Part shown: positions 3,333-63,800 of the stretch, in pieces
How positions within the stretch are numbered: position 1 is the first letter of the stretch
How the letters are laid out: each line of letters begins with the position of its first letter
From: Alphaproteobacteria bacterium
Lineage (GTDB): Bacteria > Pseudomonadota > Alphaproteobacteria > SMXQ01
Reading direction: 5' to 3'
Assembly (NCBI GenBank): GCA_035714115.1
Contig: DASTMO010000033.1
Span: 29,451 to 93,450, forward strand
DNA: 64,000 bases
Notes under the pieces: generated by a model
Told to the model about the DNA's origin: nothing
Database searches by the model: none
Seen by the model: the letters and a program-made list of their open reading frames with translations, nothing else
Translations under genes and position numbers: made by a program

Positions 3333-4328
3333 TCACTCGCCGAACAGCGCGGCCAGCCCTTGCGGCGAGGTGAACATGCGCCCGGCGCTATGGCCGACGC
3401 CCGGCACGGTGACGAGCCGGTGATTGTGCGGCGCGTAGTAGGCATCCATGAAATGGCTGAAGGCGGTCAGGCGGGCGAAACGCATCGGCCCTTGCGCCAT
3501 CGCCTGGCAGGTCTTGGACAGGTTGGCCGCGTTCGGATCGGTGTCGGCTTCGCCGGCGAGATAGATGACGCGGCGCGTGCGATAGCGGGCGATCTCGGTC
3601 TCCGCCGTATCGCGTTTCATGTAGGCGTTGGACCGTTCAAAGCCGTAGCCGTAGCGGTTCGTCTCGCATTTCGACGGCGGCGGCACGGCGAATTCGGCGC
3701 TGCCGGAAACGGGGCGGCGCGCGTCGAGATAGAGCAGGCTCGATGGATTGGCGACGATATAGGTGACCGGGGGCAAGCCCGGCGTGTCGCGGCTCGCCAC
3801 CGCATAGCGCTGCAGATATTGCGCGCCCGCGGAGTGAGCGGCGAGGATGACGCGCTCCAAGTTGGGGTAGAGCGCGCGGTCGGCGAGGGGACTGAGAATC
3901 TCGTCGAGCACGGCGAATGCATGCACGCGCGGCGAAATGGCGGCGCTAGACAGCTCGCCGAAGCGCCAGTTGGAGCGGCGGTCCCACACCAGGCTGCCTT
4001 TTGGCGCGCTTTTCGGATCGGCCAGCTCGGCGAAATGGGGCGCGATCACGATGGTGTCGGCGGCATGGCCGCTGCGCGCCGTGGCTGTCAGCCCGGTATT
4101 GAAATAGCTTTCGGCATTGCCGTCGGTGCCATGGATGATGACCAGGGCGCGGCGAATTTCGGGATGAGCATCGCGCAGGGGTAAGGTGGCGTAGAGCGTG
4201 GCAGACAGGCCTTCGACGGCGATCTGCCCGCGGCATAACTCGACTTTTTTGCTGCAGTCCGCAGCGGCCGCGACGGACGTCTGTGCGGCGAGCAGCAGCA
4301 AGGCGGCGAGGGATGAGCGCAGCATCAT
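3333..4328 (-). CDS. Secreted alpha/beta-fold hydrolase (esterase/lipase-like)
   Basis: Start re-set to tandem ATG at 4328 (MMLRSSLAALLLLAAQTSVAAAA signal peptide). Nucleophile-elbow-like 'AAHSAGAQY'. C-terminal 'GVGHSAG'. Confidence 0.6.
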   Translation of the reverse strand: MMLRSSLAALLLLAAQTSVAAAADCSKKVELCRGQIAVEGLSATLYATLPLRDAHPEIRRALVIIHGTDGNAESYFNTGLTATARSGHAADTIVIAPHFAELADPKSAPKGSLVWDRRSNWRFGELSSAAISPRVHAFAVLDEILSPLADRALYPNLERVILAAHSAGAQYLQRYAVASRDTPGLPPVTYIVANPSSLLYLDARRPVSGSAEFAVPPPSKCETNRYGYGFERSNAYMKRDTAETEIARYRTRRVIYLAGEADTDPNAANLSKTCQAMAQGPMRFARLTAFSHFMDAYYAPHNHRLVTVPGVGHSAGRMFTSPQGLAALFGE

Positions 4329-4386: not shown

Positions 4387-7300
4387 TTGAGCGATATGTG
4401 GCAGTTCTGGATCGATCGTGGCGGCACCTTCACCGACATCGTCGCGCGCGCGCCGGACGGCGCCATCGTCACGCGCAAGATGCTGTCGGAGAATCCGGGC
4501 CGCTACGACGACGCGGCGTTGGCCGGCATTCGCGCCATTCTGGGTTTAACGGACGGCGCGGCGATTCCCGCCGCCGAAATCGCCGCCGTCAAGATGGGCA
4601 CGACCGTCGCCACCAATGCATTGCTCGAGCGCAAGGGCGAGCCGCTCGTTCTGGTCACGACGCGCGGCTTTCGTGATGCGCTGCGCATCGCTTATCAGAA
4701 CCGCCCGCGCCTGTTCGACCTCAAGGTGACGCTGCCGGAAATGCTCTATGCCCGCGTCATCGAGGCCCACGAACGGATCGACGCGCAGGGCCTCGAGCTG
4801 CAAGCGTTGGATGGAGCAGCGCTGGAGCGCGATTTACGCGCGGCTTACGAAGCGGGCCTGCGTTCGGTCGCCATCGTCTTCATGCATGCTTGGCGCGATG
4901 GCGCTCATGAGATCCAGGCCGCTGCGATCGCCCGGCGCATCGGCTTTTCGCAAATCTCTGTCTCGCATCAAGTCTCGCCGCTGATGAAGCTGGTCGGGCG
5001 AGGCGACACCACGGTGGCCGACGCTTATCTCTCGCCGATCCTGCGCCGCTATGTCGACCGGGTGACCGGGGCGCTCGGCGGCGCGCCGCTGCTGTTCATG
5101 CAGTCGAACGGCGGCCTTGTCGCGGCCGGGCATTTCCAGGGCAAGGACAGCATCCTGTCCGGCCCCGCCGGCGGCATCGTCGGCGCGGCCAAGGCGGCGG
5201 CGCGGGCCGGCATCGACAAGCTCATCGGCTTCGACATGGGCGGCACTTCGACAGACGTCTCACATATCGACATGACGGCCGAGGGCGCAGGGCTGGAGCG
5301 GACATTCGAGACGGTGGTCGCGGGCGTACGCTTGCGCGCGCCGATGCTCGCCATCAATACCGTGGCGGCGGGTGGCGGCTCGATCTTGACGTTCGACGGC
5401 TCGCGTCTGCGCGTCGGGCCGGAATCGGCGGGCGCCAATCCGGGGCCTGCTTGTTACCGTAAGGGAGGTCCGCTCACCGTCACCGACGCCAATCTGATGG
5501 TCGGCAAGATCCGGCCCGAGTTTTTTCCCAAGATCTTCGGGCCGAACGGCGATCAAGCGCTCGATGCCGAGATCGTGCGCGAGAAATTCGCCGCGCTGGC
5601 GGGCGAAGTGGCGCGCGCCACCGGCGTGACGCGCAGCCCTGAGGAATTGGCCGACGGTTTCCTGCGCATCGCCAACGAGGCGATGGCGCACGCGATCAAG
5701 CAGATCTCGATCCAGCGCGGGCGCGACGTGGCGAAATATGCGCTCGGCTGTTTCGGCGGCGCGGGCGGCCAGCACGCCTGCAAGGTCGCCGACGCGCTCG
5801 GCATGACGGCGGCTTTCATCCATCCGCTGGCCGGCGTGCTGTCGGCGCTCGGCATGGGCCTCGCCGACCGCGTCGAGATGCGCGAACGCGCTGTCGAAAC
5901 GAAACTGTCCTCCGAAAGTGAAGCGACGCTGAAGACTGCGCTCGATGATTTAAGTGACGCCGCGCAAGGCGCGTTGATCGGGCAGGGCGTGGCGCAGGAG
6001 CGCATCGCCATCCATCGCCGCGTTCACTTGCGTTATGAAGGCACCGACACCGCCGAGCCGGTGGCTTATGCCGGCGCTGCAGCCATGCGCGAAGCCTTCG
6101 AGGCGGCGCATCAGCGCAGCTATGGCTTCGTCATGGCTGGCCGCGCCTTGATCGTCGAAGCCGTTTCGGCCGAGGCGGTTGGCGCCATGGAGGGCATCGA
6201 TGCGCTGCGCTTCGCCGCGCCGCCGACGGGCGAGGCCTTGCCGACACCGCTGGGCATGGCGAAGCTTTATGCCGATGGCGCGTTGCACGACGCGCCGATC
6301 CATGGGCGCGAGAAATTGCCGGTTGACGTGCCGCTCGATGGCCCCGCCATCCTGATCGAGGCCAACGCCACGACAGCGATCGAGCCGGGCTGGCAGGCGC
6401 GCATGACCGCGCACGGCGATCTGTTGCTCGCGCGCGTGCTGCCGTTGCGCCAGGCGCCGGCCATGGGCACCGCCGCGGATCCGGTGATGCTGGAAATTTT
6501 CAATAATCTCTTCATGGCCATCGCCGAGCAGATGGGCGTGGCGCTCGCCAGCACCTCGCAGTCGGTCAATATCAAGGAGCGGCTCGATTTCTCCTGCGCC
6601 CTGTTCGACGGCGTCGGTAATCTCATCGCCAATGCGCCCCACATGCCGGTGCATCTTGGCTCGATGGGCGAGTCAGTCGCCGCTGTGTTGAAAGGTCGTA
6701 AAGGCTCGCTCAAGCCCGGCGATGTGGTGGTGCATAACGCGCCCTACAACGGCGGCACGCATCTGCCGGACGTGACGGTCATCATGCCGGTATTCGCCGA
6801 AGGCGACGCCAGCACGCCGCTGTTCTTCGTCGCGGCACGCGGCCATCATGCCGACATCGGCGGCATCACGCCCGGGTCCATGCCGCCGGACTCCACCACG
6901 ATCCTCGACGAAGGCGTGCTGTTCGATGACGTGACGCTGGTCGCAGGCGGCGTCTTCTGCGAGCCCGACATGCGCGCGCGCCTGGCGAGCGGTTCCTGGC
7001 CGAGCCGGGCCATCGAGCAGAATATCGCCGATCTCAAGGCCCAGGTCGCGGCCTGCGAGAAGGGCGCGCAGGAGCTGGCGCGCATGGTGCGCGATTTCTC
7101 GCTTCCGGTCGTGCGCGCCTATATGGGCCATGTGCAGGACAATGCTGAGGAAGCGGTGCGCCGCGCCATCGCCCAGCTCAAAGACGGCGCATTCGCTTTG
7201 CCGCTCGACGACGGCGGCGAAATTCGCGTGGCGGTTCGCATCGACAAGGCGGCGCGCCGCGCCATGGTGGATTTTACCGGTTCGTCCCTACAGCGGCCGA

Positions 7301-21207: not shown

Positions 21208-21733
21208 GTGGGGATGAGATCCGAGGGCTGGGCAAACGAACGCGACGAAGGGACGCGACGAAAACGAAAGGCACGCAAATCAGGTGGGGGGCTTCTGTTG
21301 CCCGGCGCCCCCCGAGCCGCGCTTACCTATTAGGCAGCGAGTGCAACGCGATTGTCGTTGGCACTTATCAAACGACCCGATAACGGCGGTATCATGCCGG
21401 GCGAAAAGTCTACCTTTACCACGCGTGTCGATCCTATTTCGCCCCCATGGACCGGCCCTTCTCGGAAGGACCGGTGAAGATGGTGGAGGCGCCGGGTACC
21501 GCCCCCGGGTCCACTACGCTTATTCCATAAACCGTTTATCGCCATAGTCGGTTGCCCGACCCTTAAAATATAAGGTGTTTCGGGGGGATTTGAAAGGGCA
21601 GGGCCGGAACCGGGTTCCGAAGGTTTTCCACAGGCTTAAGGGCGCGCTGGCGGTTTTATTCTGCGCGGTAAGCCGGTAAAGTTCCGGCCGCCTACCGGCC
21701 GCGCCCCGCGGCCGCTTATCCCGGAGTTGTTGG

Positions 21734-22675
21734 ATGCCCTTGAGTCCCGAGCAGCAGGCCGAAATCGAATCGGCCCGCGCCCAGTCCGCCGCCACGCGCC
21801 GTCCGACCGCTCCCGCCCTCGAGGAGATCCTCTACACCGCCCTGCCGGTGCTCGATCATGGTTTCGTGCGCGTCGTCGATTACATGGGCGACGATGCCGC
21901 CGTCGTGCAGGCCGCGCGCGTTTCCTACGGCAAGGGCACCAAGCGCGTCAGCGAGGACGCCGGCCTCATCAACTATTTGATGCGCCATCGCCATACGACG
22001 CCGTTCGAGATGTGCGAGATCAAGTACCACATCAAGCTGCCGATCTTCGTCGCGCGCCAGTGGATCCGCCATCGCACCGCCAACGTGAACGAATATTCGG
22101 CGCGCTACTCGATCCTCGACAACGAATTCTACATCCCCAAGGCCGAGCAACTCGGCGCGCAGTCCAAATCCAACCGCCAGGGCCGCGCCGACGCGCTGAC
22201 CGGCGCCGACGCCGCGCGCGTGCTGCAGATCCTGCGTGAGGACTCGCAGCAGACCTACGATCACTACGCCGAGATGCTGAACGAGAACGAGAAGGGCGAG
22301 GTGATCGATCCCAACCGCACGGGGCTGGCGCGCGAATTGGCGCGCATGAACCTGACGGTCAACTTCTATACCCAATGGTATTGGAAGGTCGATCTGCACA
22401 ACCTTCTGCATTTCCTCAGCTTGCGCGCCGATCCGCATGCGCAATACGAGATTCGTGTTTATGCCGACGCGATGCTGGAAACGGTGAAGCGTTGGGTGCC
22501 GCTGGTGTGCGACGCCTTCCTGCAATATCGCATGGGCGGCGTGCATCTGTCGGAGAAGGCGCTGCAGGCCGTCAAGCGCATGCTGAACGGCGAGAAGGTC
22601 GATCAGAAGGACAGCGGCCTGTCGCTTCGCGAATGGCGCGAGACGATGGACAAGCTCGGGATCGAGCAGAAGTAG
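21734..22675 (+). CDS. thyX: FAD-dependent thymidylate synthase
   Basis: '[27 protein letters not shown]', '[43 protein letters not shown]' (ThyX RHRxxS motif). Confidence 0.9.
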
Positions 22676-22682
22676 GTCTGTA

Positions 22683-23951
22683 TTAGTGCGGTAAAATAGT
22701 AGAAATGTGTGGCATCATTCCCGTCACTTTCAAAAACCAATCAACAAAATAGTTGACGGTACCTTCGGCAGCCTTCTTTTGAAGATGATCGAGAAGAGTT
22801 TGAAAGAACGTCGGCTTCTCTTTTTTGATGAGGGCGACTGCTTCTTGGAATGCGGCGTTGTTATCAATTTTTCCAGCCTCTACAACCTGCTCAATAAGTA
22901 GCAAGGCGGAGCGGACTCGCTCATCTGAACTCTCTATAACTTTCAAAATTAATGCGCGCCATTCTCGGGCGTCGTCACGTTCCTGCTGTACCACTTGGCC
23001 CATATATTCGAGGCTTCGCTGATCGTTGGCGCGATAGCGCGTTAACTGCTCGCGCAAATCGGCATTATCTCGCGCTGATAACATTAGTAAATCGCGTTGA
23101 TGTCTAACCTCCATCTCCGCGATTTGAAGGACGTGTTTCAATTCCATTATATCAGTTGGGTTAGTCAAAAAATCTTCAGGGCGGCGCCTTCCCGTAATGA
23201 CTTCATGGTAATCATTAAGTGTCTGTTCAATCACTTCTCGAGCGCCATCTGGTGTGTCGATAATTAATCGAACGAGCAGGTCTTCCTGCTCAATTCGAAC
23301 TTTTACATTAATGTCGGGGTACTTCTGCCGAATAACAGTGGCGAAGTGGGTTAGAATTTCCATGCCGGCTTTATAATAGTCGGGAGGAAATTGAATTGAT
23401 GTGTAGATGATGTTTTTGAAGTCGTTTGAAACGGAATCCGGCGATGTGTTGTCGATAATTGCATAGGCTGCCTCCGCAAATGCTTTGAGAAGCATTAGGT
23501 GGCAATAGACAGAGATTTTGAGGCCGCGTGATTTACCGCCTGAGAAATCTAAGAGCTTATAATAATCAAGGTTGATGCGGGTTAGATCTGCCTTTCCAGC
23601 ATCCTTGTTTCCCTCGGGAGTGCTGGCGGCCTCGAGTGCCGTGCTGACTAATTTTTCTAAACTAGCTTTAAACTTATCGTGTGCTGGTAATGCCGCCCCG
23701 ACCTGGTTGTGGAAGTACTCCCAGTCGATGCAGTTTCTTAGATTGCGCTGAATAGATAAGACCTCAAACTTAATGCGCTTTTGGTCCAAATCTTCCTTTG
23801 CGCGAGTTTGTAAATACTCCAGGCTTTCGCGAGTTTTGAAAATATTATCCATGAAATTGACCACCGTTCCTCCATCTCGCACGAGATATGTAATTGAGGT
23901 TTCGGCAGGTAGTTTTGATAGCACTAAAAATTTGAAGAAACGGTCAAACAT
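22683..23951 (-). CDS. Hypothetical protein, 422 aa, encoded by a strongly AT-rich (atypical-composition) insert; no recognisable catalytic motif
   Basis: Long uninterrupted ORF in a ~1.35-kb stretch whose GC content is far below flanks. Preferred start is second ATG (MFDRFFKF...) preceded by GGGGGGA at -6; first ATG at 23969 lacks an RBS. C-terminal half is predicted helical/coiled-coil (ELKHVLQIAEMEVRHQRDLLMLSARDNADLREQLTRY...). Confidence 0.7.
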   Translation of the reverse strand: MFDRFFKFLVLSKLPAETSITYLVRDGGTVVNFMDNIFKTRESLEYLQTRAKEDLDQKRIKFEVLSIQRNLRNCIDWEYFHNQVGAALPAHDKFKASLEKLVSTALEAASTPEGNKDAGKADLTRINLDYYKLLDFSGGKSRGLKISVYCHLMLLKAFAEAAYAIIDNTSPDSVSNDFKNIIYTSIQFPPDYYKAGMEILTHFATVIRQKYPDINVKVRIEQEDLLVRLIIDTPDGAREVIEQTLNDYHEVITGRRRPEDFLTNPTDIMELKHVLQIAEMEVRHQRDLLMLSARDNADLREQLTRYRANDQRSLEYMGQVVQQERDDAREWRALILKVIESSDERVRSALLLIEQVVEAGKIDNNAAFQEAVALIKKEKPTFFQTLLDHLQKKAAEGTVNYFVDWFLKVTGMMPHISTILPH

Positions 23952-24025
23952 AGTGTCCCCCCGGATCATCTACGTATTGAGTTTGTGGTGCTTCTTAAGA
24001 CTAAACGGGCTGCAATTAAGGGTCA

Positions 24026-55798: not shown

Positions 55799-55975
55799 CG
55801 AGCCGCTTCGCAAGCCGATCAAGGCGGAACCTGTCGACTGACAATCAGTCGCGAATCGCATTTGCCTTAATCGCGCCTAAGTGAAGCCATCAACGGAATT
55901 TCTAATTGCTGCTGTCGTTCCATTGGAACTCGTCGCCGGAACCCACCCTGCGACGCATGACAGGAGAGACAGAAA

Positions 55976-56685
55976 TGTCCGTTAAGAAGACCGCTGCGGC
56001 GCTCGCCGCGATTCCGCTTACTCTCGGCCTGCTGGCGCAGAGCGCGCTGGCCGATCCGCCGCACGGCAGAGGCCGCGGGCACGACAAGCATGATCGCGGC
56101 GACAACGTCACCATTATCGTTCCGGGTGCGCCGGTTTATGTGCAGCCCGCCCCGGTCATCGTGCAGCAGCCGGTCTATGTGCAGCGGGCGCCGGTGATCT
56201 ATCGCGCCGGCCCGCCGCCGTGGGCGCCGGCGCACGGCTATCGCCGCAAGGGCCAGCCGGTCTATGCCGCGCCCTACGGCATCGCTTCGGGCAGTTGCTA
56301 TCGCGAGCAGGTCGGTCAGGTGCTCGGCGGCGTCGCCGGCGCGGCCATCGGCTCGCAGATCGGCCAGGGCACTGGCAGGGTCGTCGCCGTCGCGGGCGGC
56401 GCGCTGCTCGGCGTGCTGGTCGGCGGCAGCATCGGCCAGAGCATGGACCGGCTTGATTACGCCTGCGCCGGTCAGGTGATGGAATATGCGCCGGACAACC
56501 GCACCATCGTCTGGAACAATCCGCAGACCGGCGGGCGCTATCAGATGACGCCGATCCGCGCCTATCAGGCGGACGGCCGCTATTGCCGCGAATACAGCTC
56601 CACCGCGAGCGTCGGTGGCCAGCGCCAGCAGGTCTACGGGACGGCTTGCCGCCAGCCGGACGGCTCGTGGCAGATCGTCAGCTAA
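55976..56685 (+). CDS. Secreted 17-kDa-surface-antigen-like protein (glycine-zipper + C-terminal surface-antigen domain)
   Basis: Signal peptide MSVKKTAAALAAIPLTLGLLAQSALA; QPV/APV repeats; 'GGVAGAAIGSQIGQGTGRVVAVAGGALLGVLVGGSIG' glycine zipper; C-terminal 'YCREY...CRQPDGSWQIV'. Confidence 0.6.
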
Positions 56686-56935: not shown

Positions 56936-57418
56936 ATGTCGCCTTGGGCGGGACGGGGGATCGCCTCCTTGCGTGTGTCGAGCTTATTGCTCGCGGCCGC
57001 GCTCGCCCTCTCGGCTTGCGAACTGATCGATCCACCGCCTCCGCCGCCGCCCGAGAAACCGCCGGTGCCGGCGCAAACGGCGCCTGCCGAAACGCCTGCG
57101 ACCCCAGCTCCGGCGCCCCGTTTGCCGCCCAGCCCGCCGCCGCCGCGACCGCAGTTCGATCTGCAGAGCCTGATCGGCATGGGCGAGCAGGATGTGGCCG
57201 CCGCGCTCGGCCAGCCGCGCCAGGTGCGCAACGATCCGCCCGCCATGGTCTGGGACTATCAAGCCAACGGCTGCGCGCTCAGCCTGTTCTTCTATCTCGA
57301 CCTGAAAAGCCAGGACTTCCGCACGCTCGCCTACAACTTCGACTCCGGGGGGGCGACGGATTCCGCCAAGCAGCTCTGTGTTAATCGAATCCAAGATCTC
57401 AACCGTGGCCGACGCTGA
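56936..57418 (+). CDS. Lipoprotein with Pro-rich linker, unknown function
   Basis: Lipobox 'ALSAC' after signal peptide; PPPPPPPEKPPVP... linker; 3' end overlaps response-regulator ORF. Confidence 0.55.
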   Translation: MSPWAGRGIASLRVSSLLLAAALALSACELIDPPPPPPPEKPPVPAQTAPAETPATPAPAPRLPPSPPPPRPQFDLQSLIGMGEQDVAAALGQPRQVRNDPPAMVWDYQANGCALSLFFYLDLKSQDFRTLAYNFDSGGATDSAKQLCVNRIQDLNRGRR

Positions 57419-58193
57419 TTCCGCACCGCAGCCTGCCGCCAGCGGCACCAAAGGCCATGTCGTCCTGATCGACGACGACGAGCTGTTCCGCGAATCGCTC
57501 GAGCAGAATCTGCGCGACAGCGGCTACGATGTGCTCGCCTTCGATCGCGGCGAGCCGGCGCTTGCTTATTTCCAGGACGGCAAGACGGCCGATCTCGTGC
57601 TGCTCGATTGGAAGATGCCGGAGATGAACGGCATCGAAGTGCTCCGCCGCTTGCGCCAGATCACCACCGAAATGCCGGTGATTTTCCTCACCGTGCTCAG
57701 CGACCAGATCTATGAAGAGGCGGCGCTGCTCTCCGGCGCGGTCGATTTCGTCGAAAAATCGCGCAGCTTCACGATCTTGCTCAAGCGCATGGCGCTCATC
57801 CTCGGCGGCGCCAAGGCCGGCGAACAAGCGGGCGCTGCCGCCGCCTCCGGGCCGGCTGCTGCCGACAAGAGCGGCAACGTCACGCTCGGCCTGCTGGAAT
57901 TGAGCATCGATTCGAGCCGCGCCTTCTGGCGCAAGACTCAGGTCGACCTCACGCTCACCGAATTCGAGATCGTCCGCTATATGGCCACCCATGCCGGCCA
58001 GGACGTGAAGTACCGCGAGATTTACGACATCGTCCACGGCAAGGGCTTCGTCGCCGGCGAAGGGCCGGAAGGCTTCCGCGCCAACGTGCGCACCTTCATC
58101 AAGCGTATCCGCCAGAAATTCCGCGCGGTCGACGCCGGCTTCGAGCAGATCGAGAACTATCCGGGCTTCGGCTACCGCTGGCGCGAAAGCTGA
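57378..58193 (+). CDS. OmpR-family two-component response regulator (start uncertain: ATG 57378 or GTG 57405)
   Basis: Receiver 'VVLIDDDELF...DLVLLDWKMPEMNGIEVL' then winged-helix 'LTLTEFEIVRYMATHAGQDVKYREI...GYRW'. Confidence 0.85.
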   Translation: MLIESKISTVADADSAPQPAASGTKGHVVLIDDDELFRESLEQNLRDSGYDVLAFDRGEPALAYFQDGKTADLVLLDWKMPEMNGIEVLRRLRQITTEMPVIFLTVLSDQIYEEAALLSGAVDFVEKSRSFTILLKRMALILGGAKAGEQAGAAAASGPAAADKSGNVTLGLLELSIDSSRAFWRKTQVDLTLTEFEIVRYMATHAGQDVKYREIYDIVHGKGFVAGEGPEGFRANVRTFIKRIRQKFRAVDAGFEQIENYPGFGYRWRES

Positions 58194-58200
58194 GGCGCCC

Positions 58201-59700
58201 ATGGACGCTTTATTGCGCCTCGCTTCGTCCATCGCCGGCAAACTCGCCCTCATTCTGGTCGTGTTCGTCGCCTGCCCGCTGATCATCTACAGCCAGTTCC
58301 GCGATGCCGACGAAGAAAAGAACGCGCTGCTGCTGCGCTCCGTACGCGAGCAGGGCCGCCTCGTCGCCCAGGCCTTGACCCCGCTGCTCACCTCCGCCGA
58401 TGCTGCCGCCCTGCCGAAATTGCGCCAGGGCGTCGAGAAGGTCGTCGACGGCCCGTTGAAGGTCCGCCTGCTGCTGCGGCCGCAGTCCGCTGAGCCGGAC
58501 AATTTCTTCTACATGGCGTCCGTGCCGCCGGTCGCTGCCGATCTCTTGCAGCGCGAGCGCAAGGAGCTGCTCGAGACGGGAATCCTTGAGCGCTTGCGCG
58601 GCAGCTGCGAGGGCGAAGGACCGCTGGCGCTGCGTTACACCAATCCGGCCGGCGAGCAGGAAGTGCTGAGCTCAGTGACGCCGATCAACACGGCGGTCGG
58701 CTGCTGGGCGGTGATCACGTCGCACACGACCGCCGATTTCCTCGGCTCCTCGCTCGGCCAGCCCTATTGGCGCACCACCGCCGTTCAATGGGCGGCGGCG
58801 ATCTATCTGATCATGGCCATGCTGGTCATTTCGCTCTTCCTCGGCATCTGGGGCAACCTGCGCCGCTTCGGCCGCATCGCGCGCGCCATCCGCCAGGACC
58901 GGCTGCGCGGCGCGTCCTTCGCCGCGCTCAATCAGGTGCCCGAGCTGCACGGCGTCGCCGTCGAGTTCGACCATATGGTCGGCACCCTGCAAGGCTCCGC
59001 CGCCGCCATCCGCAGCGCCGCCGAAGAGAACGCCCATGCGCTCAAGACGCCGATTGCGGTCATCTCGCAATCGCTTGAGCCGCTCAAGCGCGCCGTGCCG
59101 GAAGCCGATGCGCGCGGCCGCCGCGCGCTGCAGCTGATCGAGCGCTCCGTCGACAAGCTCGACGCGCTGGTGTCGGCGGCGCGCCGCATGGACGAAGCGA
59201 TCGCCGAACTGATCAATCCGCCGCGCGAGCCGGTCGATCTGTCGGCGCTGGTCGCCCGCCTGCTCACCGACTACGAAGAGAAGATGCGCGGCGACGGGTT
59301 GAAGCTCGATCAGCGCGTGCTGCCGGACATGCGCGTGGTGGGCAGCATCGATCTTCTGGAAACCGCCATCGAAAACATCGTCGAGAACGCCATCAGCTTC
59401 TCGCCGGCCAAGGGCGCCGTCACCGTTACTTTGGTGACCGAAGGCCAGGAGGCCGTCCTGACCGTGGCCGACGAAGGGCCGGGCGTCGATCCGCGCCATC
59501 TGGCGATGATTTTCGAGCGCTATTTCTCCCATCGTCCGGCGCGCGACCCCCTGGGACCGGGCGTGGAGGGCGAAACCCATTTCGGCATCGGCCTGTGGAT
59601 CGTCCGGCGCAACATCGAAGCGCTCGACGGCAGCGTGACGGCGCTCAACCGGCCGCAAGGCGGCCTAGCCATCACCATTCGTCTGCCTTTAGCAAAATAA
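58201..59700 (+). CDS. Sensor histidine kinase with periplasmic sensing domain
   Basis: Two TM helices flanking ~170-aa periplasmic domain; H-box 'AHALKTPIAVI', N/G-box 'ENAISFSP...ADEGPGVD...GIGLWIV'. Confidence 0.85.
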   Translation: MDALLRLASSIAGKLALILVVFVACPLIIYSQFRDADEEKNALLLRSVREQGRLVAQALTPLLTSADAAALPKLRQGVEKVVDGPLKVRLLLRPQSAEPDNFFYMASVPPVAADLLQRERKELLETGILERLRGSCEGEGPLALRYTNPAGEQEVLSSVTPINTAVGCWAVITSHTTADFLGSSLGQPYWRTTAVQWAAAIYLIMAMLVISLFLGIWGNLRRFGRIARAIRQDRLRGASFAALNQVPELHGVAVEFDHMVGTLQGSAAAIRSAAEENAHALKTPIAVISQSLEPLKRAVPEADARGRRALQLIERSVDKLDALVSAARRMDEAIAELINPPREPVDLSALVARLLTDYEEKMRGDGLKLDQRVLPDMRVVGSIDLLETAIENIVENAISFSPAKGAVTVTLVTEGQEAVLTVADEGPGVDPRHLAMIFERYFSHRPARDPLGPGVEGETHFGIGLWIVRRNIEALDGSVTALNRPQGGLAITIRLPLAK

Positions 59701-59801
59701 TATTAAAAATCAATGTGTTGGATGTGGCTGGCGGTGTGGCGGCCTGTCACAACTTTGCCCCAACCTTGCCGCAAGACCGGCCAATTGGGCTCGCATAGTT
59801 T

Positions 59802-60347
59802 GTGAACGCCGGGGTCTCGAGTTCCGGCTTGTTTGAGAGCCACAAAGCAGAACCGAGTCAGATGCCGACAGTTCAAACCCTGCCAGCGATCGACCCCGGC
59901 CTAACGATTTCCGTCGCCCAGCCTTTCTTGCAAGGCGAGGACTATCTGCAGCAGATCGAGCGCAGCATCGCTCTGCTGGCCGGCCAGCATTCTCTGCGCA
60001 TCTCTCTTTTCCGTCTCGAATTCGTCGGCATCGCCGCGCATGAACTCGGCGCGCGGGCCCGCCAGTCGCTGGCCGGTCTCGGCCTGATCGGCGCCTTGCC
60101 CGATGGCAGCCTCGGGCTGCTGTACATAGGCGCGCGCCCCTCGGGTCAGGAAGACCTGTCGGTCGAGCGCGTCGTCGCCGAAAAGGTCAACCTCGCCCTG
60201 GCGCTCGTCGCGCCGTCCGGCGCGCGGCTTCAGTCGGTCACCGCGGCCCATCGCTGGGCCGACGAAATCGCCGATGCGGAGGATCTCATCGACGAGGCTT
60301 TGTTCATCGTCAAGACCTGCGGCTATCAGCTGCGTCGGGTGTCGTGA
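59802..60347 (+). CDS. Hypothetical protein (start uncertain; alt. ATG 59862)
   Basis: ORF whose stop overlaps (ATGA) the start of the downstream glucosaminidase gene; no motif recognised. Confidence 0.45.
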   Translation: MNAGVSSSGLFESHKAEPSQMPTVQTLPAIDPGLTISVAQPFLQGEDYLQQIERSIALLAGQHSLRISLFRLEFVGIAAHELGARARQSLAGLGLIGALPDGSLGLLYIGARPSGQEDLSVERVVAEKVNLALALVAPSGARLQSVTAAHRWADEIADAEDLIDEALFIVKTCGYQLRRVS

Positions 60348-61276
60348 TGGCACTTAACCGCGATTTCCTGATGCGCGCCGGGATGGCGGCGATGATCGCC
60401 GCCGCGACGGGCGTCGCTGCCTGGCAGGAACGCGCTTCGGGTGATCGCGTGCTGCGCGGAGAGGTCTCGGCGGCCTGGCTCGCTGATTATCACCGCGAAC
60501 TCGGTTACAGCCTCGACGATGTGCGCAAGGCCGGCCAACCTGTGCCGCGCGTGATGCTGGCCGAACTGCCGGTCGATCTCGCCAAGGTCGAGCCGACGCC
60601 GCTGCGCAAACGCCTGTTCATCGAAGGGCTGCTGCCGGTCGTGCTCGGCGTCAACGAGCGCATCGCGGACGACCGCGCCCGTTTGGCGTCTCTGCTTGCC
60701 AGGCAGACTGGCGGCGAAGCGCTCAGCATGCGTGAGCAAATCTGGCTTGCCGACATGGCTGCCCGCTACGGCAGCGAAGACACCGCTGAGCTGCTGCGCC
60801 GCGTCGACGTGGTGCCGGTCTCGCTCGCCATCGCCCAGGCGGCGATCGAGAGCGGTTGGGGCTCTTCGCGCTTCGCTCAGGAAGGCAATGCGCTCTTCGG
60901 CCAGCGCGTTTATGGCGCAAACAGGACTGGAAGCGGCATGCAGCCCGCCGGCCTGACCGGCGCCGACTTCGGCGTGCGCGGTTTCGAGACCTTGAGCGAT
61001 GCGGTCGCCGCCTATGCCGATAATCTCAACAGCTTTCCGGCCTACGACGGCTTGCGCGCCGTGCGCGCCGGCTTGCGCGCTCAGGGCCGCGCCCCCGATG
61101 GCCTGACGCTTGCCGGCAGCCTGTTGCGCTATTCCGAACTCGGCGGCCATTACGTCAGTCAGGTGCGCGATTTGATCCGCGCCAACAATCTTGCAGCCTT
61201 GGACAAGGCGCGCCTCGTCGGCGCGCCGGATGATGAGCCGGCGTTAGATCGGCAGTCGGAGCGTAAGGACATTTAG
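60344..61276 (+). CDS. Glucosaminidase-domain protein (Bax/FlgJ-C-like peptidoglycan hydrolase), membrane-anchored
   Basis: N-terminal TM; 'PVSLAIAQAAIESGWGSSRFAQEGNALFGQ' is the mannosyl-glycoprotein endo-beta-N-acetylglucosaminidase-like motif. Confidence 0.7.
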   Translation: MMALNRDFLMRAGMAAMIAAATGVAAWQERASGDRVLRGEVSAAWLADYHRELGYSLDDVRKAGQPVPRVMLAELPVDLAKVEPTPLRKRLFIEGLLPVVLGVNERIADDRARLASLLARQTGGEALSMREQIWLADMAARYGSEDTAELLRRVDVVPVSLAIAQAAIESGWGSSRFAQEGNALFGQRVYGANRTGSGMQPAGLTGADFGVRGFETLSDAVAAYADNLNSFPAYDGLRAVRAGLRAQGRAPDGLTLAGSLLRYSELGGHYVSQVRDLIRANNLAALDKARLVGAPDDEPALDRQSERKDI

Positions 61277-61278
61277 CG

Positions 61279-61734
61279 ATGCGTGCGTTCTGGGAACGTG
61301 ATTTGGCTTGGCAACAGGCGCTTGCGGCTTCGGCTGGCGCGCTCGTGATTGCAGTCGGGGTCGCTTGGGCCAGCGATCAGTTGAACGGCGGCGGCATGTC
61401 CGCGCCGGCGGCTGATCAGCAGTTCTCCTCGCGCCAGACCGCGTTCGAGCAGATGACGCCGGGAAACCGTTTGATCGCCGAAGCCTTGTTCGCGGCGCAG
61501 ATGCCCGATGACGGTGCGCGCCGCAGCTGGCCCTTGACCCGCATCGCCACCGAGCGCGTCGCAGGACAAAGCTGGGGCGATGTGTTTCAGGAGATGAAGA
61601 GCGAGAATCTGTTGCGTGCCGACACGCTCGGGCAGGTCGTCACTTGGTATCAATACAATTATTTGAAGCCCGAGCCTTATGCTGGCCGCGCTTCGATCGC
61701 GACGACGCCGGTGAGCGAAGAATACGGGAACTAG
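61279..61734 (+). CDS. Hypothetical membrane-anchored protein
   Basis: 151 aa, one TM helix 'ALAASAGALVIAVGVAWA'; 2 nt after upstream stop. Confidence 0.5.
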   Translation: MRAFWERDLAWQQALAASAGALVIAVGVAWASDQLNGGGMSAPAADQQFSSRQTAFEQMTPGNRLIAEALFAAQMPDDGARRSWPLTRIATERVAGQSWGDVFQEMKSENLLRADTLGQVVTWYQYNYLKPEPYAGRASIATTPVSEEYGN

Positions 61735-61800
61735 GCCTTAGGGCCGGCGTTCTAAAAAGCAGTAAGCGTAGCCTTGAGCAGAGATTGAAGGAGCCAAAAA

Positions 61801-62028
61801 ATGACCACGTTGAAAAAGATCGGTGCTGTTTCTCTGATGCTGTTCGGCCTCGCGGCCTGCTCGAACATGAACGACTCGCAGCAGCGTACGTTGTCGGGCG
61901 GCGCCATCGGCGCGGCCGGCGGCGCGGTTGTCGGCGCATTGACGGGTAGCTGGGTGACCGGCGCATTGATCGGTGGCGCGGGCGGTGCCGCGGTCGGCGC
62001 CATCACCAGCGAGAACAACAAGAAGTAA
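61801..62028 (+). CDS. Glycine-zipper small lipoprotein (OsmB/YMGG-like)
   Basis: Lipobox 'LAAC', then 'GGAIGAAGGAVVGALTGSWVTGALIGGAGGAAVGAI'. Confidence 0.7.
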   Translation: MTTLKKIGAVSLMLFGLAACSNMNDSQQRTLSGGAIGAAGGAVVGALTGSWVTGALIGGAGGAAVGAITSENNKK

Positions 62029-62030
62029 GC

Positions 62031-62340
62031 GTTCAGGAATGCTTCGTCGGCTGGCCCCCCGGCGGCTTACGAAGCAGGGCGCAGGTGTCGCGACGGGCAT
62101 CTGCGCCTCTTAATCAGCGGCAGCGCAGCCGCTTCAGGAAACTCCGTCGGCTGGCCCCCCGGCGGCCTACGGAGTGGGCGCGGATGTCGCGACGGGCATC
62201 CGCGCCTATAAATTCCACGCTGCATCCTGGTGGTGCAGGCGCGGCCAGAGACTTCATCGATTGGCCCCCCGGCGGTCGATGAAGTGAGGAGCGGGTGTCG
62301 CGACGGGCATCCGCTCCTTTTATTTTGGCTCATGCCGATT
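62031..62340 (+). repeat. Three tandem ~100-110-nt structured repeat units (two hairpins each; conserved loops, covarying stems); unit 3 ends in a terminator-like hairpin+T-run
   Basis: Units at ~62031-62132, 62133-62250, 62251-62340. Hairpin 1 stems gcttcgt/acgaagc, actccgt/acggagt, cttcatcga/tcgatgaag around conserved 'tggccccccggcgg'. Hairpin 2 stems ggcgcag/ctgcgcc, ggcgcgga/tccgcgcc, aggagcgg/ccgctcct around conserved 'gtgtcgcgacgggcat'. Units 1 and 2 both start with 'ttcaggaa'. Confidence 0.7.
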
Positions 62341-62385
62341 TTGTCCCCGCTATTCTCCACAGGCCATGCGCGAGATCATGCGTGC

Positions 62386-62859
62386 TCAGTAGGCGCGGAC
62401 GCGTCGTCTGCCCCAGTGCAGTGGCGCTGTCGCTATACCGTAAACGAGCCAGCCGAGGGCCATACCGACGAGCGCGCTGATCAGGCTCGCCGTGTCGAGT
62501 GGCAGAGCGGGCTGGAAATTCGCCCAGGCGGCTTTGGCGATGGCGCCGTCGATGTCGCGCAGCAGCGCGAGCGGCCGCCACAACGGGTCGGCGGTCATGA
62601 TGGCGTCATAAGCGCGCGACAATTCGCCGACGCGTCGTTCGGCGGCGGATACGAGAGCGGCTTGCATGTCGAGCGGCAGCGGGCCGGCATAATCGCCGGC
62701 GCGAATCTTTTCCAGCGTCAGGCGCGCTTCGTCGATATGGCCGCCGAGACGCTGCAGATAGGCGGCGCTGAAAGCTTGGGCCTGCGATGCGGCAAGGCCG
62801 GCGGTCGCAGCGACGCAGGTGCCGGCGAGCGAATCGAACTTGCGCAACAGCCAGGACAT
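62386..62859 (-). CDS. Hypothetical protein (possibly DUF2937-like)
   Basis: Start re-set to MSWLLRKFDSL preceded by GGGAGGAA RBS; C-terminal hydrophobic segment. Confidence 0.55.
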   Translation of the reverse strand: MSWLLRKFDSLAGTCVAATAGLAASQAQAFSAAYLQRLGGHIDEARLTLEKIRAGDYAGPLPLDMQAALVSAAERRVGELSRAYDAIMTADPLWRPLALLRDIDGAIAKAAWANFQPALPLDTASLISALVGMALGWLVYGIATAPLHWGRRRVRAY

Positions 62860-62975
62860 TCCATTCCTCCCAGGTGGCGGGGTTCCAGGGATTGTGGCAC
62901 TTTGTCCCCAGGAGCACTTCAAGAAATGAACGCCGCAAAGATGGCGTCAGCAGGGCATCGGGCGAGCAGGGCGAG

Positions 62976-63800
62976 ATGACGGTCGACTTGAAAGGCCGCG
63001 TGGCGGTTGTGACGGGGGCGAGCCGTGGGCTTGGCCGGGCCATGGCCATGGGGTTGGCCGAAGCGAACGGCCGCGTCGTGCTGGCCGCGCGTGAGAGCGA
63101 GGATTTGCGCGCTGCCGCCGCGGAGATCGCCGCGCGTGCCGGCGCCGATCGTGTGCTTGCCGTTGCCGCTGACATCACCGATCAGGCCGATTGCCAGCGC
63201 GTCGTCTCCGAAACGCTCGCCCGCTTCGGCGAGCTCGACGTGCTGATCAACAACGCGCGCCGCCCGCACCGTGGGCCTGGCCTGCCGTCGGACGATCATT
63301 CGGTGCCGTTCTGGCAGTTCGATCCGGAGGTCTGGATGGATATCATGCGCGTCAATGTCGGCGGGCCGTTCATGCTCGCCCGCGCCGTCGTACCGCATCT
63401 CATCCACAAGGGCTGGGGCCGCATCATCAATCTTTCGACCAACATCGACACCATGCAGCGTCCGCACAACTCGCCTTACGGCGTCAGCAAGGCGGCGGTG
63501 GAAGCGGCGACACTGATCTGGGCGGGCGACTTGAAAGAGACCGGCGTGACGGTCAATACAATCCTGCCGGGCGGCGCTTGCGCCACCGAACTGTTGCGTC
63601 TGGCCGAAGCCAACGGGCGCAGCGGTAAATTGCTGCCGGTCGATGTGATGAACCCCCTGGCCGTCTGGCTGGCCTCCGACCTGTCGGACGGCAAGAGCGG
63701 CGGGCGCTATGTCGCGCGCTTCTGGGATGCCTCGCTGCCGGCGGACCAGGCGGCGGCGCGTTGCCTGGAAGCGCCGGTGCTGCGCGCGCCGATCCGTTAA
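62976..63800 (+). CDS. Short-chain dehydrogenase/reductase (SDR) family oxidoreductase
   Basis: Start re-set to MTVDLKGRVAVVTGASRGLGRAMA (TGxxxGxG); 'NNAR', 'YGVSKAAVE' (YxxxK). Confidence 0.85.
   Translation: MTVDLKGRVAVVTGASRGLGRAMAMGLAEANGRVVLAARESEDLRAAAAEIAARAGADRVLAVAADITDQADCQRVVSETLARFGELDVLINNARRPHRGPGLPSDDHSVPFWQFDPEVWMDIMRVNVGGPFMLARAVVPHLIHKGWGRIINLSTNIDTMQRPHNSPYGVSKAAVEAATLIWAGDLKETGVTVNTILPGGACATELLRLAEANGRSGKLLPVDVMNPLAVWLASDLSDGKSGGRYVARFWDASLPADQAAARCLEAPVLRAPIR

Follow-up and report, generated by a model that had tools for sequence, protein, structure and literature searches.

Directly behind a small glycine-zipper lipoprotein gene, the window, as we call the whole 64-kb stretch of DNA analysed here, contains three direct repeats of a two-hairpin module of about 70 nt, all on the + strand (62040–62108, 62141–62207 and 62251–62319). 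This module is locus-specific and is found in one, two or three tandem copies, its structure is under selection on the + strand only, and the apical sequences of its hairpins are constrained much more than neighbouring synonymous sites. We give an even chance to the best-supported reading, drawn by analogy with described systems, that it is a structured-RNA module of the 3'UTR which would terminate the transcript and yield one to three two-hairpin small RNAs (sRNAs) acting through their invariant apexes. An initial annotation of this DNA had reported a tandem array of three two-hairpin elements in a convergent intergenic region and had read it as a functional structured RNA and not as a REP element. 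The array is present as described, and its reading as RNA is supported by a single locus per genome, strict synteny over 15 loci, G·U pairs on the + strand and the invariant apexes.

Genomic context of the array

The array sits in the 3'UTR of the lipoprotein gene, with a gap of 12 nt between the TAA stop codon of this gene (62026–62028) and hairpin 1 of the first unit. The features of the surrounding region are as follows:

55906–56685: second glycine-zipper/17-kDa-antigen protein
57378–58193: OmpR-type response regulator, part of the conserved neighbourhood
58201–59700: histidine kinase, part of the conserved neighbourhood
Between the histidine kinase gene and the gene for the 161-aa protein: AT-rich gap of 160 nt
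Between this gap and the glucosaminidase gene: gene for a 161-aa protein without assigned function
60344–61276: Bax-like glucosaminidase, part of the conserved neighbourhood
61279–61734: gene for a 151-aa protein without assigned function, upstream of the lipoprotein gene
61801–62028, + strand: glycine-zipper lipoprotein gene, 75 aa, OsmB/YmgG-like, with the lipobox LAAC (Pfam Gly-zipper_YMGG, E = 9e-9)
62386–62859, − strand: DUF2937 gene, the convergent and conserved downstream neighbour (Pfam DUF2937, E = 7e-21), lying outside the RNA

In NCBIfam the lipoprotein also matches OsmB and YiaD, though weakly, and orthologues of it are found at 10 of the 11 loci that carry more than one unit, the gene being degraded at the remaining one (L133). 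Given this envelope-related neighbourhood, one might guess that the RNA perhaps serves, as a non-coding component, in a regulon concerned with the envelope.

Architecture of the repeated unit

The basic module measures about 70–82 nt and is composed of a purine-rich leader, hairpin 1, hairpin 2 and an A/U-rich tail. In the window the units start 100 and 110 nt apart, and the spacers of 30–45 nt between them are themselves made of hairpins, so that the array can be described by the following elements:

62040–62076, + strand: hairpin 1 of unit 1, with a variable basal stem of 8 bp (from the fold, the consensus structure and pair counts)
62077–62108, + strand: hairpin 2 of unit 1, a 13-bp stem with the hexaloop GCGACG, then the A/U-rich tail CUUAAUC
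62116–62133, + strand: hairpin of spacer 1, AGCGGC-AGCGCA-GCCGCU (z = -2.1), of a sequence that varies among genomes
62141–62175, + strand: hairpin 1 of unit 2 (from the fold, the consensus structure and pair counts)
62176–62207, + strand: hairpin 2 of unit 2, with the A/U-rich tail AUAAAUU after the stem (from the fold and pair counts)
62216–62245, + strand: hairpin of spacer 2, from the fold of the spacer, without sequence conservation
62251–62285, + strand: hairpin 1 of unit 3, with the basal stem ACUUCAUCGA/UCGAUGAAGU, the most diverged of the three units
62286–62326, + strand: hairpin 2 of unit 3, 14 bp (62286–62319), and its U-tract UUAUUUU (62320–62326), a predicted intrinsic terminator

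Hairpin 1 has a bipartite stem, in which a variable base of 7–10 bp is followed by a mismatch or bulge of one nucleotide, a conserved inner helix of 5 + 2 bp interrupted by one bulged G, and a CCCC tetraloop. Its apex is the invariant, C-rich sequence GGCCCCCCGGCGG; in unit 1 the inner helix reads GGCUG(G)CC / GGCGGCU around the CCCC tetraloop, and the loop has an unpaired probability of about 1.0. The initial annotation had drawn this apex as a loop of 14–20 nt, and the helix with its bulged G and tetraloop now takes the place of that loop. Hairpin 2 is a stem of 13–14 bp with the invariant apex GUCGCGACGGGC, in which GUGUC and GGCAU are paired and the hexaloop GCGACG remains. The 8-bp palindrome that had been placed in the loop of this hairpin does occur in every unit, but the loop itself is reduced to the hexaloop. 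The nucleotides predicted to be exposed are therefore those of the GCGACG loop and those of the CCCC loop, the latter with two weak flanking C-G pairs that extend it to a run of six Cs.

On the + strand, units 1, 2 and 3 fold with energies of -46.3, -49.8 and -46.7 kcal/mol, corresponding to z-scores between -4.4 and -5.7; 200 dinucleotide shuffles were folded for comparison, and not one matched the real units. The A/U-rich linkers read UUAAU and AUAAAU. Across loci the spacers are unalignable, yet nearly all of them give one or two hairpins (20 spacers, z = -1.4 to -5.4), and it is because of these unalignable spacers that the array went undetected by Tandem Repeats Finder.

Distribution and synteny

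Within the 64-kb window the motifs TGGCCCCCCGGCGG and GTGTCGCGACGGGCAT are confined to the three units, even when 2–3 mismatches are allowed. A pattern joining both apexes was then scanned against one genome per species (185,579 species) and matched four contigs only, with exactly three tandem matches on each. All four belong to metagenome-assembled genomes (MAGs) that bear the label Alphaproteobacteria or 'Rhizobium sp.', and in all of them the gene order is that of the window, namely lipoprotein gene, array and convergent DUF2937. The pattern used for a scan of metagenomes, GGCCCCCCGG-N17-36-GTCGCGACGG, was too loose, and among the at least 120 loci listed the genuine matches were L055 and L083 only. 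Further loci were obtained by fetching contigs that encode DUF2937 homologues, with DUF2937 serving as the synteny anchor. The resulting collection comprises 35 units from 15 loci, all of them from uncultured bacteria and many on short metagenome contigs. Among their sources are activated sludge (DRR046818), freshwater (SRR2568014) and MAG contigs such as CAMAVH010000035.1 and the 954-kb contig Ga0255338_1000006.

A covariance model (R1) was built from 16 of these units. Complete units score 69–104 bits against it, those of the window reaching 97.9 bits (unit 1, 62034–62115), 100.7 bits (unit 2, 62134–62214) and 95.9 bits (unit 3, 62244–62325), and nothing else in the window falls below E = 0.1 save the antisense of the array. 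The initial annotation had proposed both a search for the motifs in the remaining genome and in relatives and a covariance model with a check of Rfam. The former leaves the array as the sole copy in the window and adds syntenic loci in relatives, while the latter recovers the units and yields no Rfam family. The module is distributed as follows:

Three copies (nine loci): the window, L001–L004, L125, L127, L131 and L133; syntenic, after the lipoprotein gene
Two copies (two loci): L083 and L129; syntenic, after the lipoprotein gene
One copy (four loci): L055, L136, L139 and L143; a distant sister clade without the lipoprotein gene
No copy: L138, L141 and L142 (Oceanibacterium); DUF2937 in a different gene context

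The position of the module is constant over the 15 loci: on one side stands the operon [161 aa – glucosaminidase – 151 aa – (lipoprotein)], on the other the DUF2937 gene in convergent orientation. In the single-unit sister clade, whose DUF2937 is about 50% identical, the unit lies directly 3' of the 145–151-aa gene. Genomes with DUF2937 in another context lack the module, and it was not found in the viral contigs and plasmids searched. The cultured relative Oceanibacterium, in which DUF2937 lies elsewhere in context, has no module either, and a cultured host was therefore not identified. The taxonomic range, which covers at least 15 loci, is narrow and the hosts are uncultured.

Selection on structure and strand

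Stem statistics were taken from 34 units (33 distinct) aligned to the covariance model, a model-fitted alignment that favours structure, and in this alignment standard pairs occupy 99.1% of 856 stem cells and both-sided, compensatory changes are seen in 10 of 26 pairs (54 cells). None of 500 column shuffles reached any of the observed measures, and in a control in which the 3' partners were slid by 1–3 columns the pairing was only 38–52%. An independent alignment of the first 15 units with MAFFT and RNAalifold gave the same helices, with 9 of the 26 pairs covarying. The stems had initially been described as differing completely in sequence between units and as fully covarying. The compensatory changes and the near-complete pairing are real, but 'fully' is an exaggeration for 10 of 26 pairs, and only some of the basal positions differ.

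Because G·U cells (125) far exceed A·C cells (6), the structure belongs to the + strand. In agreement with this, pairing is 99.1% on the + strand and 85.2% on the − strand, two of the U·G pairs are invariant, and the + strand folds better than the − strand by 8–13 kcal/mol. The strand specificity thus speaks for an RNA that is read in the same direction as the lipoprotein gene.

These data bear directly on whether the array might act as DNA, either as a mobile palindrome of the REP/BIME kind or as a set of GTCGCGAC operator sites for a dimeric DNA-binding protein. Such an origin is suggested by the presence of GTCGCGAC, a perfect 8-bp palindrome, in every unit, and by the arrangement as tandem imperfect palindromes in an intergenic region, which is often seen with REPs. 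A strand-specific structure with 125 G·U against 6 A·C cells is, however, not needed for recognition of duplex DNA, and the GTCGCGAC palindrome lies 2 nt off the axis of the hairpin. Its 7 sites in the window, 4 of them outside the units, are at chance level (4.0 ± 2.2 expected), and the position of the array 3' of both genes is not that of a promoter. There is also one locus per genome, with no other copy in the 64 kb, and searches of plasmid and viral sequences gave no copies. The many copies with identical stems by which the initial annotation would have recognised a simple REP family were not seen, the single locus per genome and the covarying stems being the opposite of that pattern. We hold a DNA-level element to be very improbable.

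The units could also be read as repetitive sequence coding for a small protein, since ORFs of 65 aa and 97 aa, at 62085–62282 (+) and 62067–62360 (−), cover them. The substitutions are, however, compensatory changes in stems and not third-position changes, and the spacers cannot be aligned. Moreover, unit spacing takes values of 94–187 nt depending on the locus, most of which three does not divide, and a reading frame conserved across the units is thereby ruled out. This interpretation is barely conceivable, and both it and the DNA-level one are effectively excluded.

Conservation of the apexes and history of the copies

The two apexes together amount to 25 nt, 13 nt of GGCCCCCCGGCGG and 12 nt of GUCGCGACGGGC, and these are identical in 35 of 35 units. 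By comparison, the adjacent lipoprotein coding sequences are on average 83% identical and their third codon positions 68% (minimum 57%), the 151-aa upstream protein has 41% identity between the two clades, and the basal stems and linkers vary freely. The sole apical pair that differs between the clades (pair 55–68) is U-A in one and C-G in the distant clade, a change that is itself compensatory.

Units group by their position across genomes, with the first units all together, the second units mostly together and the third units more diverse. From this clustering it follows that the unit was already triplicated before the sampled species diverged and that the copies have been kept as orthologues. 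Two units, the third of L002 and the second of L083, resemble second units, and some gene conversion or re-duplication among units is visible in them. At L133 the lipoprotein gene is a frameshifted remnant and all three units are intact. This decay, taken with the absence of the lipoprotein gene from the single-unit clade, shows that the RNA module is retained on its own account.

Predicted transcription and termination

A terminator scan found hairpin 2 of unit 3 with its TTATTTT to be the only terminator-like site on the + strand of the array, and the element shows the features of an intrinsic terminator, a GC-rich hairpin and, directly behind it on the transcribed strand, a U-tract. The final unit of every locus has the best, U-rich tail, and the inner units have tails of the UUAA or AUAAAU type. 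The last unit is accordingly predicted to be the terminator, since it always ends in a U-tract. If the inner units, which are without good U-tracts, were released separately, their 3' ends would be atypical for Hfq binding.

The array has the position of a 3'UTR-derived sRNA, a class to which AbnZ, CpxQ and CcsR belong, lying directly 3' of the stop codon on the coding strand and including the predicted terminator of the mRNA. The scan of 59500–63000 for sigma-70-like promoters gave 0 sites. Promoters of individual units are unlikely because of this result, the 12-nt gap to the stop codon and the 30–45-nt hairpin spacers. The alternatives first offered for the array, a 3'UTR/terminator module of the upstream gene or independent tandem sRNA paralogs, are both supported in outline, the predicted terminator in the last unit agreeing with the first; it is the word 'independent', in the sense of units with promoters of their own, that becomes unlikely.

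It could be asked whether the role of the array is purely that of a structural 3' end, in which tandem terminator or stabiliser hairpins guard against convergent transcription and 3' exonucleases without any function in trans. The last hairpin 2 with its U-tract makes a good intrinsic terminator, the array lies between convergent genes, and the spacers add further hairpins of no conserved sequence, much like generic structural padding. A terminator, however, needs a stem and a U-tract, and not 25 invariant apical nucleotides across clades whose neighbouring protein is 41% identical, and hairpin 1 is equally conserved though it has no role in termination. The retention of three orthologous copies since before the species split, and the persistence of the units after decay of the lipoprotein gene at L133, are likewise more than such a role would ask for. 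We therefore regard a purely structural function as improbable.

Comparison with known RNA families

A scan of the whole window at Rfam gathering thresholds returned only the tmRNA and one tRNA, and a permissive scan of 61700–62500 gave only six sub-threshold matches at chance level, including RsmW (21.9 bits), 6C (19.8 bits) and ar7 (15.9 bits). Rfam 15 has no family for the module, and a full-text search of the literature for the motif strings and DUF2937 found nothing relevant.

By its organisation, the closest functional analogue of the module is the CcsR1–4/cuckoo group. [quoted passage not shown] Cleavage by RNase E takes place beside U residues, and both co-transcription and trans-acting regulation have been demonstrated (PMC8034643). 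The locus type is one of tandem copies in the 3'UTR of a gene for a small DUF1127 protein (PMC8034643), and CCUCCUCCC is the motif present in all hairpin loops of the cuckoo family (PMC4615179). Like these RNAs, the module described here is alphaproteobacterial and consists of tandem homologous units with two adjacent hairpins each, within the 2–4 adjacent hairpins per RNA that define the cuckoo/CcsR type. It shares with them compensatory changes in the stems around a conserved loop or apex, a position in the 3'UTR right after a small protein gene, and duplication of modules to a variable copy number. The differences lie in the sequences and the setting. The units contain neither CCUCCUCCC nor CCUCC, their loops being CCCC and GCGACG, and unlike in cuckoo RNAs the two hairpins of a unit bear different motifs. 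The upstream gene encodes a Gly-zipper_YMGG lipoprotein or a 151-aa protein and not DUF1127, the module has no match to an Rfam model, and it occupies one locus per genome whereas cuckoo RNAs are found at several loci.

A second point of comparison is AbnZ of Caulobacter crescentus, an sRNA processed from a 3' end, whose loops of homopolymeric C pair with a G-rich element in a 5'UTR without a need for Hfq (PMC11724286). AbnZ resembles the module in being alphaproteobacterial and very GC-rich, in its place at the 3' end of an envelope-related operon, and in its stable hairpins with C stretches. It is a single sRNA with three hairpins, whereas the module is made of tandem repeated units in which the C-run is mostly inside a helix and only 4 nt are in the loop, and no likeness in sequence is claimed between the two. 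The 6C RNA of Actinobacteria (RF01066), whose C-rich loops bind G-rich ribosome-binding sites (RBSs) (PMC6486639), also has two adjacent hairpins, and one hairpin of the module has an apical run of six Cs. In 6C both loops are C-rich, whereas here only hairpin 1 has the C6 run and hairpin 2 has the loop GCGACG. The 6C match to unit 3, at 19.8 bits, has E = 4.9 against a gathering threshold of 47, and the 6C RNA belongs to another phylum and is a free-standing single gene.

REP/BIME elements are, like the module, repeated GC-rich imperfect palindromes found between convergent genes. The module differs from them in that it is not dispersed, that its copies are all in direct orientation, that conservation lies in the apex and variation in the base, and that it occupies orthologous positions across species. 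A sponge of the CsrB/RsmZ type was rejected because GGA is absent from the loops and RsmW reaches 21.9 bits where its gathering threshold is 52. A type III toxin–antitoxin system (ToxI-like), in which the tandem RNA repeats precede a toxin endoribonuclease gene of the same orientation, was rejected because the next gene is the convergent DUF2937 and the upstream genes are of the envelope type. Since membership fails for cuckoo/CcsR, 6C, REP/BIME, CsrB/Rsm and ToxI, we regard the module as a new RNA motif with the organisation of an already known kind of system.

The module lends itself well to being proposed as a new Rfam family, and a submission could start from model R1 and the alignment of the 35 units. 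If confirmed, it would be a structured-RNA family beyond Rfam 15 with unusually clean comparative support, given by stems that covary, G·U pairs specific to one strand, and apexes that stayed frozen while the neighbouring proteins diverged to 41–50% identity. It would also be a second case, unrelated in sequence, of the tandem 3'UTR two-hairpin layout of the CcsR type, and would suggest that amplification of 3'UTR modules is a recurrent route by which Alphaproteobacteria build and dose riboregulators. A specialist should be convinced by the comparative signal and find the tandem arrangement in a 3'UTR of note. Elements of this kind have been described before, however, and with so narrow a range and only uncultured hosts the impact for now is modest.

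Possible modes of action

In the simplest reading the array would be co-transcribed with the gene upstream, which in the sister clade would be the 145–151-aa gene instead of the lipoprotein gene, and the terminal hairpin 2 would end transcription. Cleavage of the RNase E type in the A/U-rich linkers may then release one to three stable two-hairpin sRNAs, comparable to CcsR1–4 and AbnZ. In a host genome of 65% GC, and by analogy with CcsR1–4, such A/U-rich single-stranded linkers are obvious candidates for RNase E cleavage. The released sRNAs would act in trans through their invariant apexes. We consider pairing of the AbnZ type the most likely mechanism for hairpin 1, whose exposed C-run would pair with G-rich sequences in 5'UTRs or RBSs; AbnZ and 6C RNA are precedents for such pairing that have been characterised by experiment. 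Hairpin 2 would be an element of termination and stability and possibly a handle for a protein, and additional copies would raise the dose. A search with RNAduplex for partners of both apexes, covering flanks of at most 6 kb on the upstream and 3.5 kb on the downstream side of 13 loci, gave a GC-rich background and no conserved site. The four Cs predicted to be unpaired in hairpin 1 are short for a seed.

The never-covarying paired nucleotides of the apexes suit sequence-specific recognition by a protein at least as well as base-pairing, and because these paired nucleotides are frozen, protein recognition is a serious rival. The array might accordingly be a platform, in cis or as a sponge, in which the two apexes form a bipartite site for an RNA-binding protein. 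Such a platform could govern how its own mRNA is processed, how stable it is or how it is terminated, or it could titrate the protein with copy number setting the capacity, as in CsrB/RsmZ or CcaF1–CcsR. Invariant apical pairs above basal stems that covary freely are the pattern to be expected if a protein reads the sequence of a helix, and each unit offers two distinct conserved apexes, repeated one to three times. The exposed loops, CCCC and GCGACG, are short, and the duplex scan of the flanks found no base-pairing target. A precedent exists in CcaF1, which binds the hairpin of CcsR1 and whose binding is abolished by a four-nt loop mutation predicted to alter the structure (PMC8034643). The conserved neighbourhood nevertheless encodes no candidate RNA-binding protein, its members being envelope- or periplasmic-like or without known domain, and the loops lack the GGA motifs of Rsm-type sponges (RsmW, 21.9 bits against a threshold of 52). 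The invariant paired nucleotides would, moreover, equally fit a seed that opens upon target binding. We see a protein platform as possible but on the doubtful side. In a broader form, the apexes would not be seeds and would present a bipartite surface to an RNA-binding protein, a small ligand or a tertiary contact, which would make the module a new type of RNA decoy or scaffold, found specifically in this clade of uncultured Alphaproteobacteria, with capacity tuned by the step from one to three tandem copies; this version we think unlikely.

Returning to the reading of the units as sRNAs that act through their apexes, two further contacts were considered and set aside. Sequence and fold leave only 2 nt of each half of the GUCGCGAC palindrome in the loop, and a kissing dimer through this palindrome would therefore need melting of the stem. 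An 8-nt match to CGGGGGGC of the tmRNA was taken as coincidental. As a separate observation, a GGGGGG run lies at RBS distance from the ORF 22683–23969 (−), a single anecdote in a low-GC segment of the window.

Extent of the repeated unit

In the loci that carry more than one of the two-hairpin RNA units, the final 6-8 nt of each spacer form a purine-rich leader, GACGGAAA or CAGGAA, lying 5' of hairpin 1, examples of which are as follows.

Window 62136-62141: purine-rich leader
L003 (a related three-unit locus) 5895-5902: purine-rich leader

At several multi-unit loci this leader pairs with an upstream UCGUC and so encloses the second spacer hairpin, which suggests that the ancestral repeat may have been a four-hairpin unit of ~140 nt.

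In the two-unit locus L083 the spacer (1200-1300) carries a 26-nt sequence that can fold into a hairpin, GATCATGGCGCGCTTGCGCGCTTGT, repeated in tandem ~2.5 times, indicating that small hairpins of the 3'UTR also duplicate locally. Within the single-unit sister clade (L055, L136, L139 and L143) a short GC hairpin (GCCCG...CGGGC) separates the unit from the stop codon at corresponding sites, and is doubled in tandem in L143 (1395-1450, - strand).

Genes preceding the array

The glycine-zipper lipoprotein gene of the three-unit locus L133 (~3860-4035, - strand of the locus) survives only as a remnant with a frameshift and an internal deletion, which begins MTTLKK... and then runs into stops; the three RNA units 3' of it are intact. 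This remnant was read from one contig and could reflect an assembly error; the second contig, L134, ends within the second unit and hence does not cover it.

The array closes an operon, and two further features of the window lie a short way 5' of that operon.

55906-56685, + strand: second glycine-zipper/17-kDa-antigen-like protein
57378-59700, + strand: OmpR-type two-component system

Synteny of the two-component system is kept in those related loci whose contigs are long enough to reach it. At the start of the glucosaminidase gene (window ~60375-60400, + strand) there is a coding stretch, CCGCGACGGGCGTCGC, similar to the invariant apical sequence of hairpin 2. The RNAduplex scan of locus flanks matched it in antisense over 12-14 nt for the window and L125 only, and the likeness is therefore probably a coincidence.

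A low-GC segment beside the tmRNA gene

Elsewhere in the window, a 2-kb segment (22001-24000) has a GC content of only 50%, compared with ~65% in the remainder, and is possibly a small island that was inserted next to ssrA.

21283-21599, - strand: two-piece alphaproteobacterial tmRNA (262 bits)
21734-22675, + strand: adjoining thyX
22683-23969, - strand: 428-aa ORF within the low-GC segment

A Pfam search with this ORF gave no match, and a GGGGGG run is found at Shine-Dalgarno distance from its ATG.
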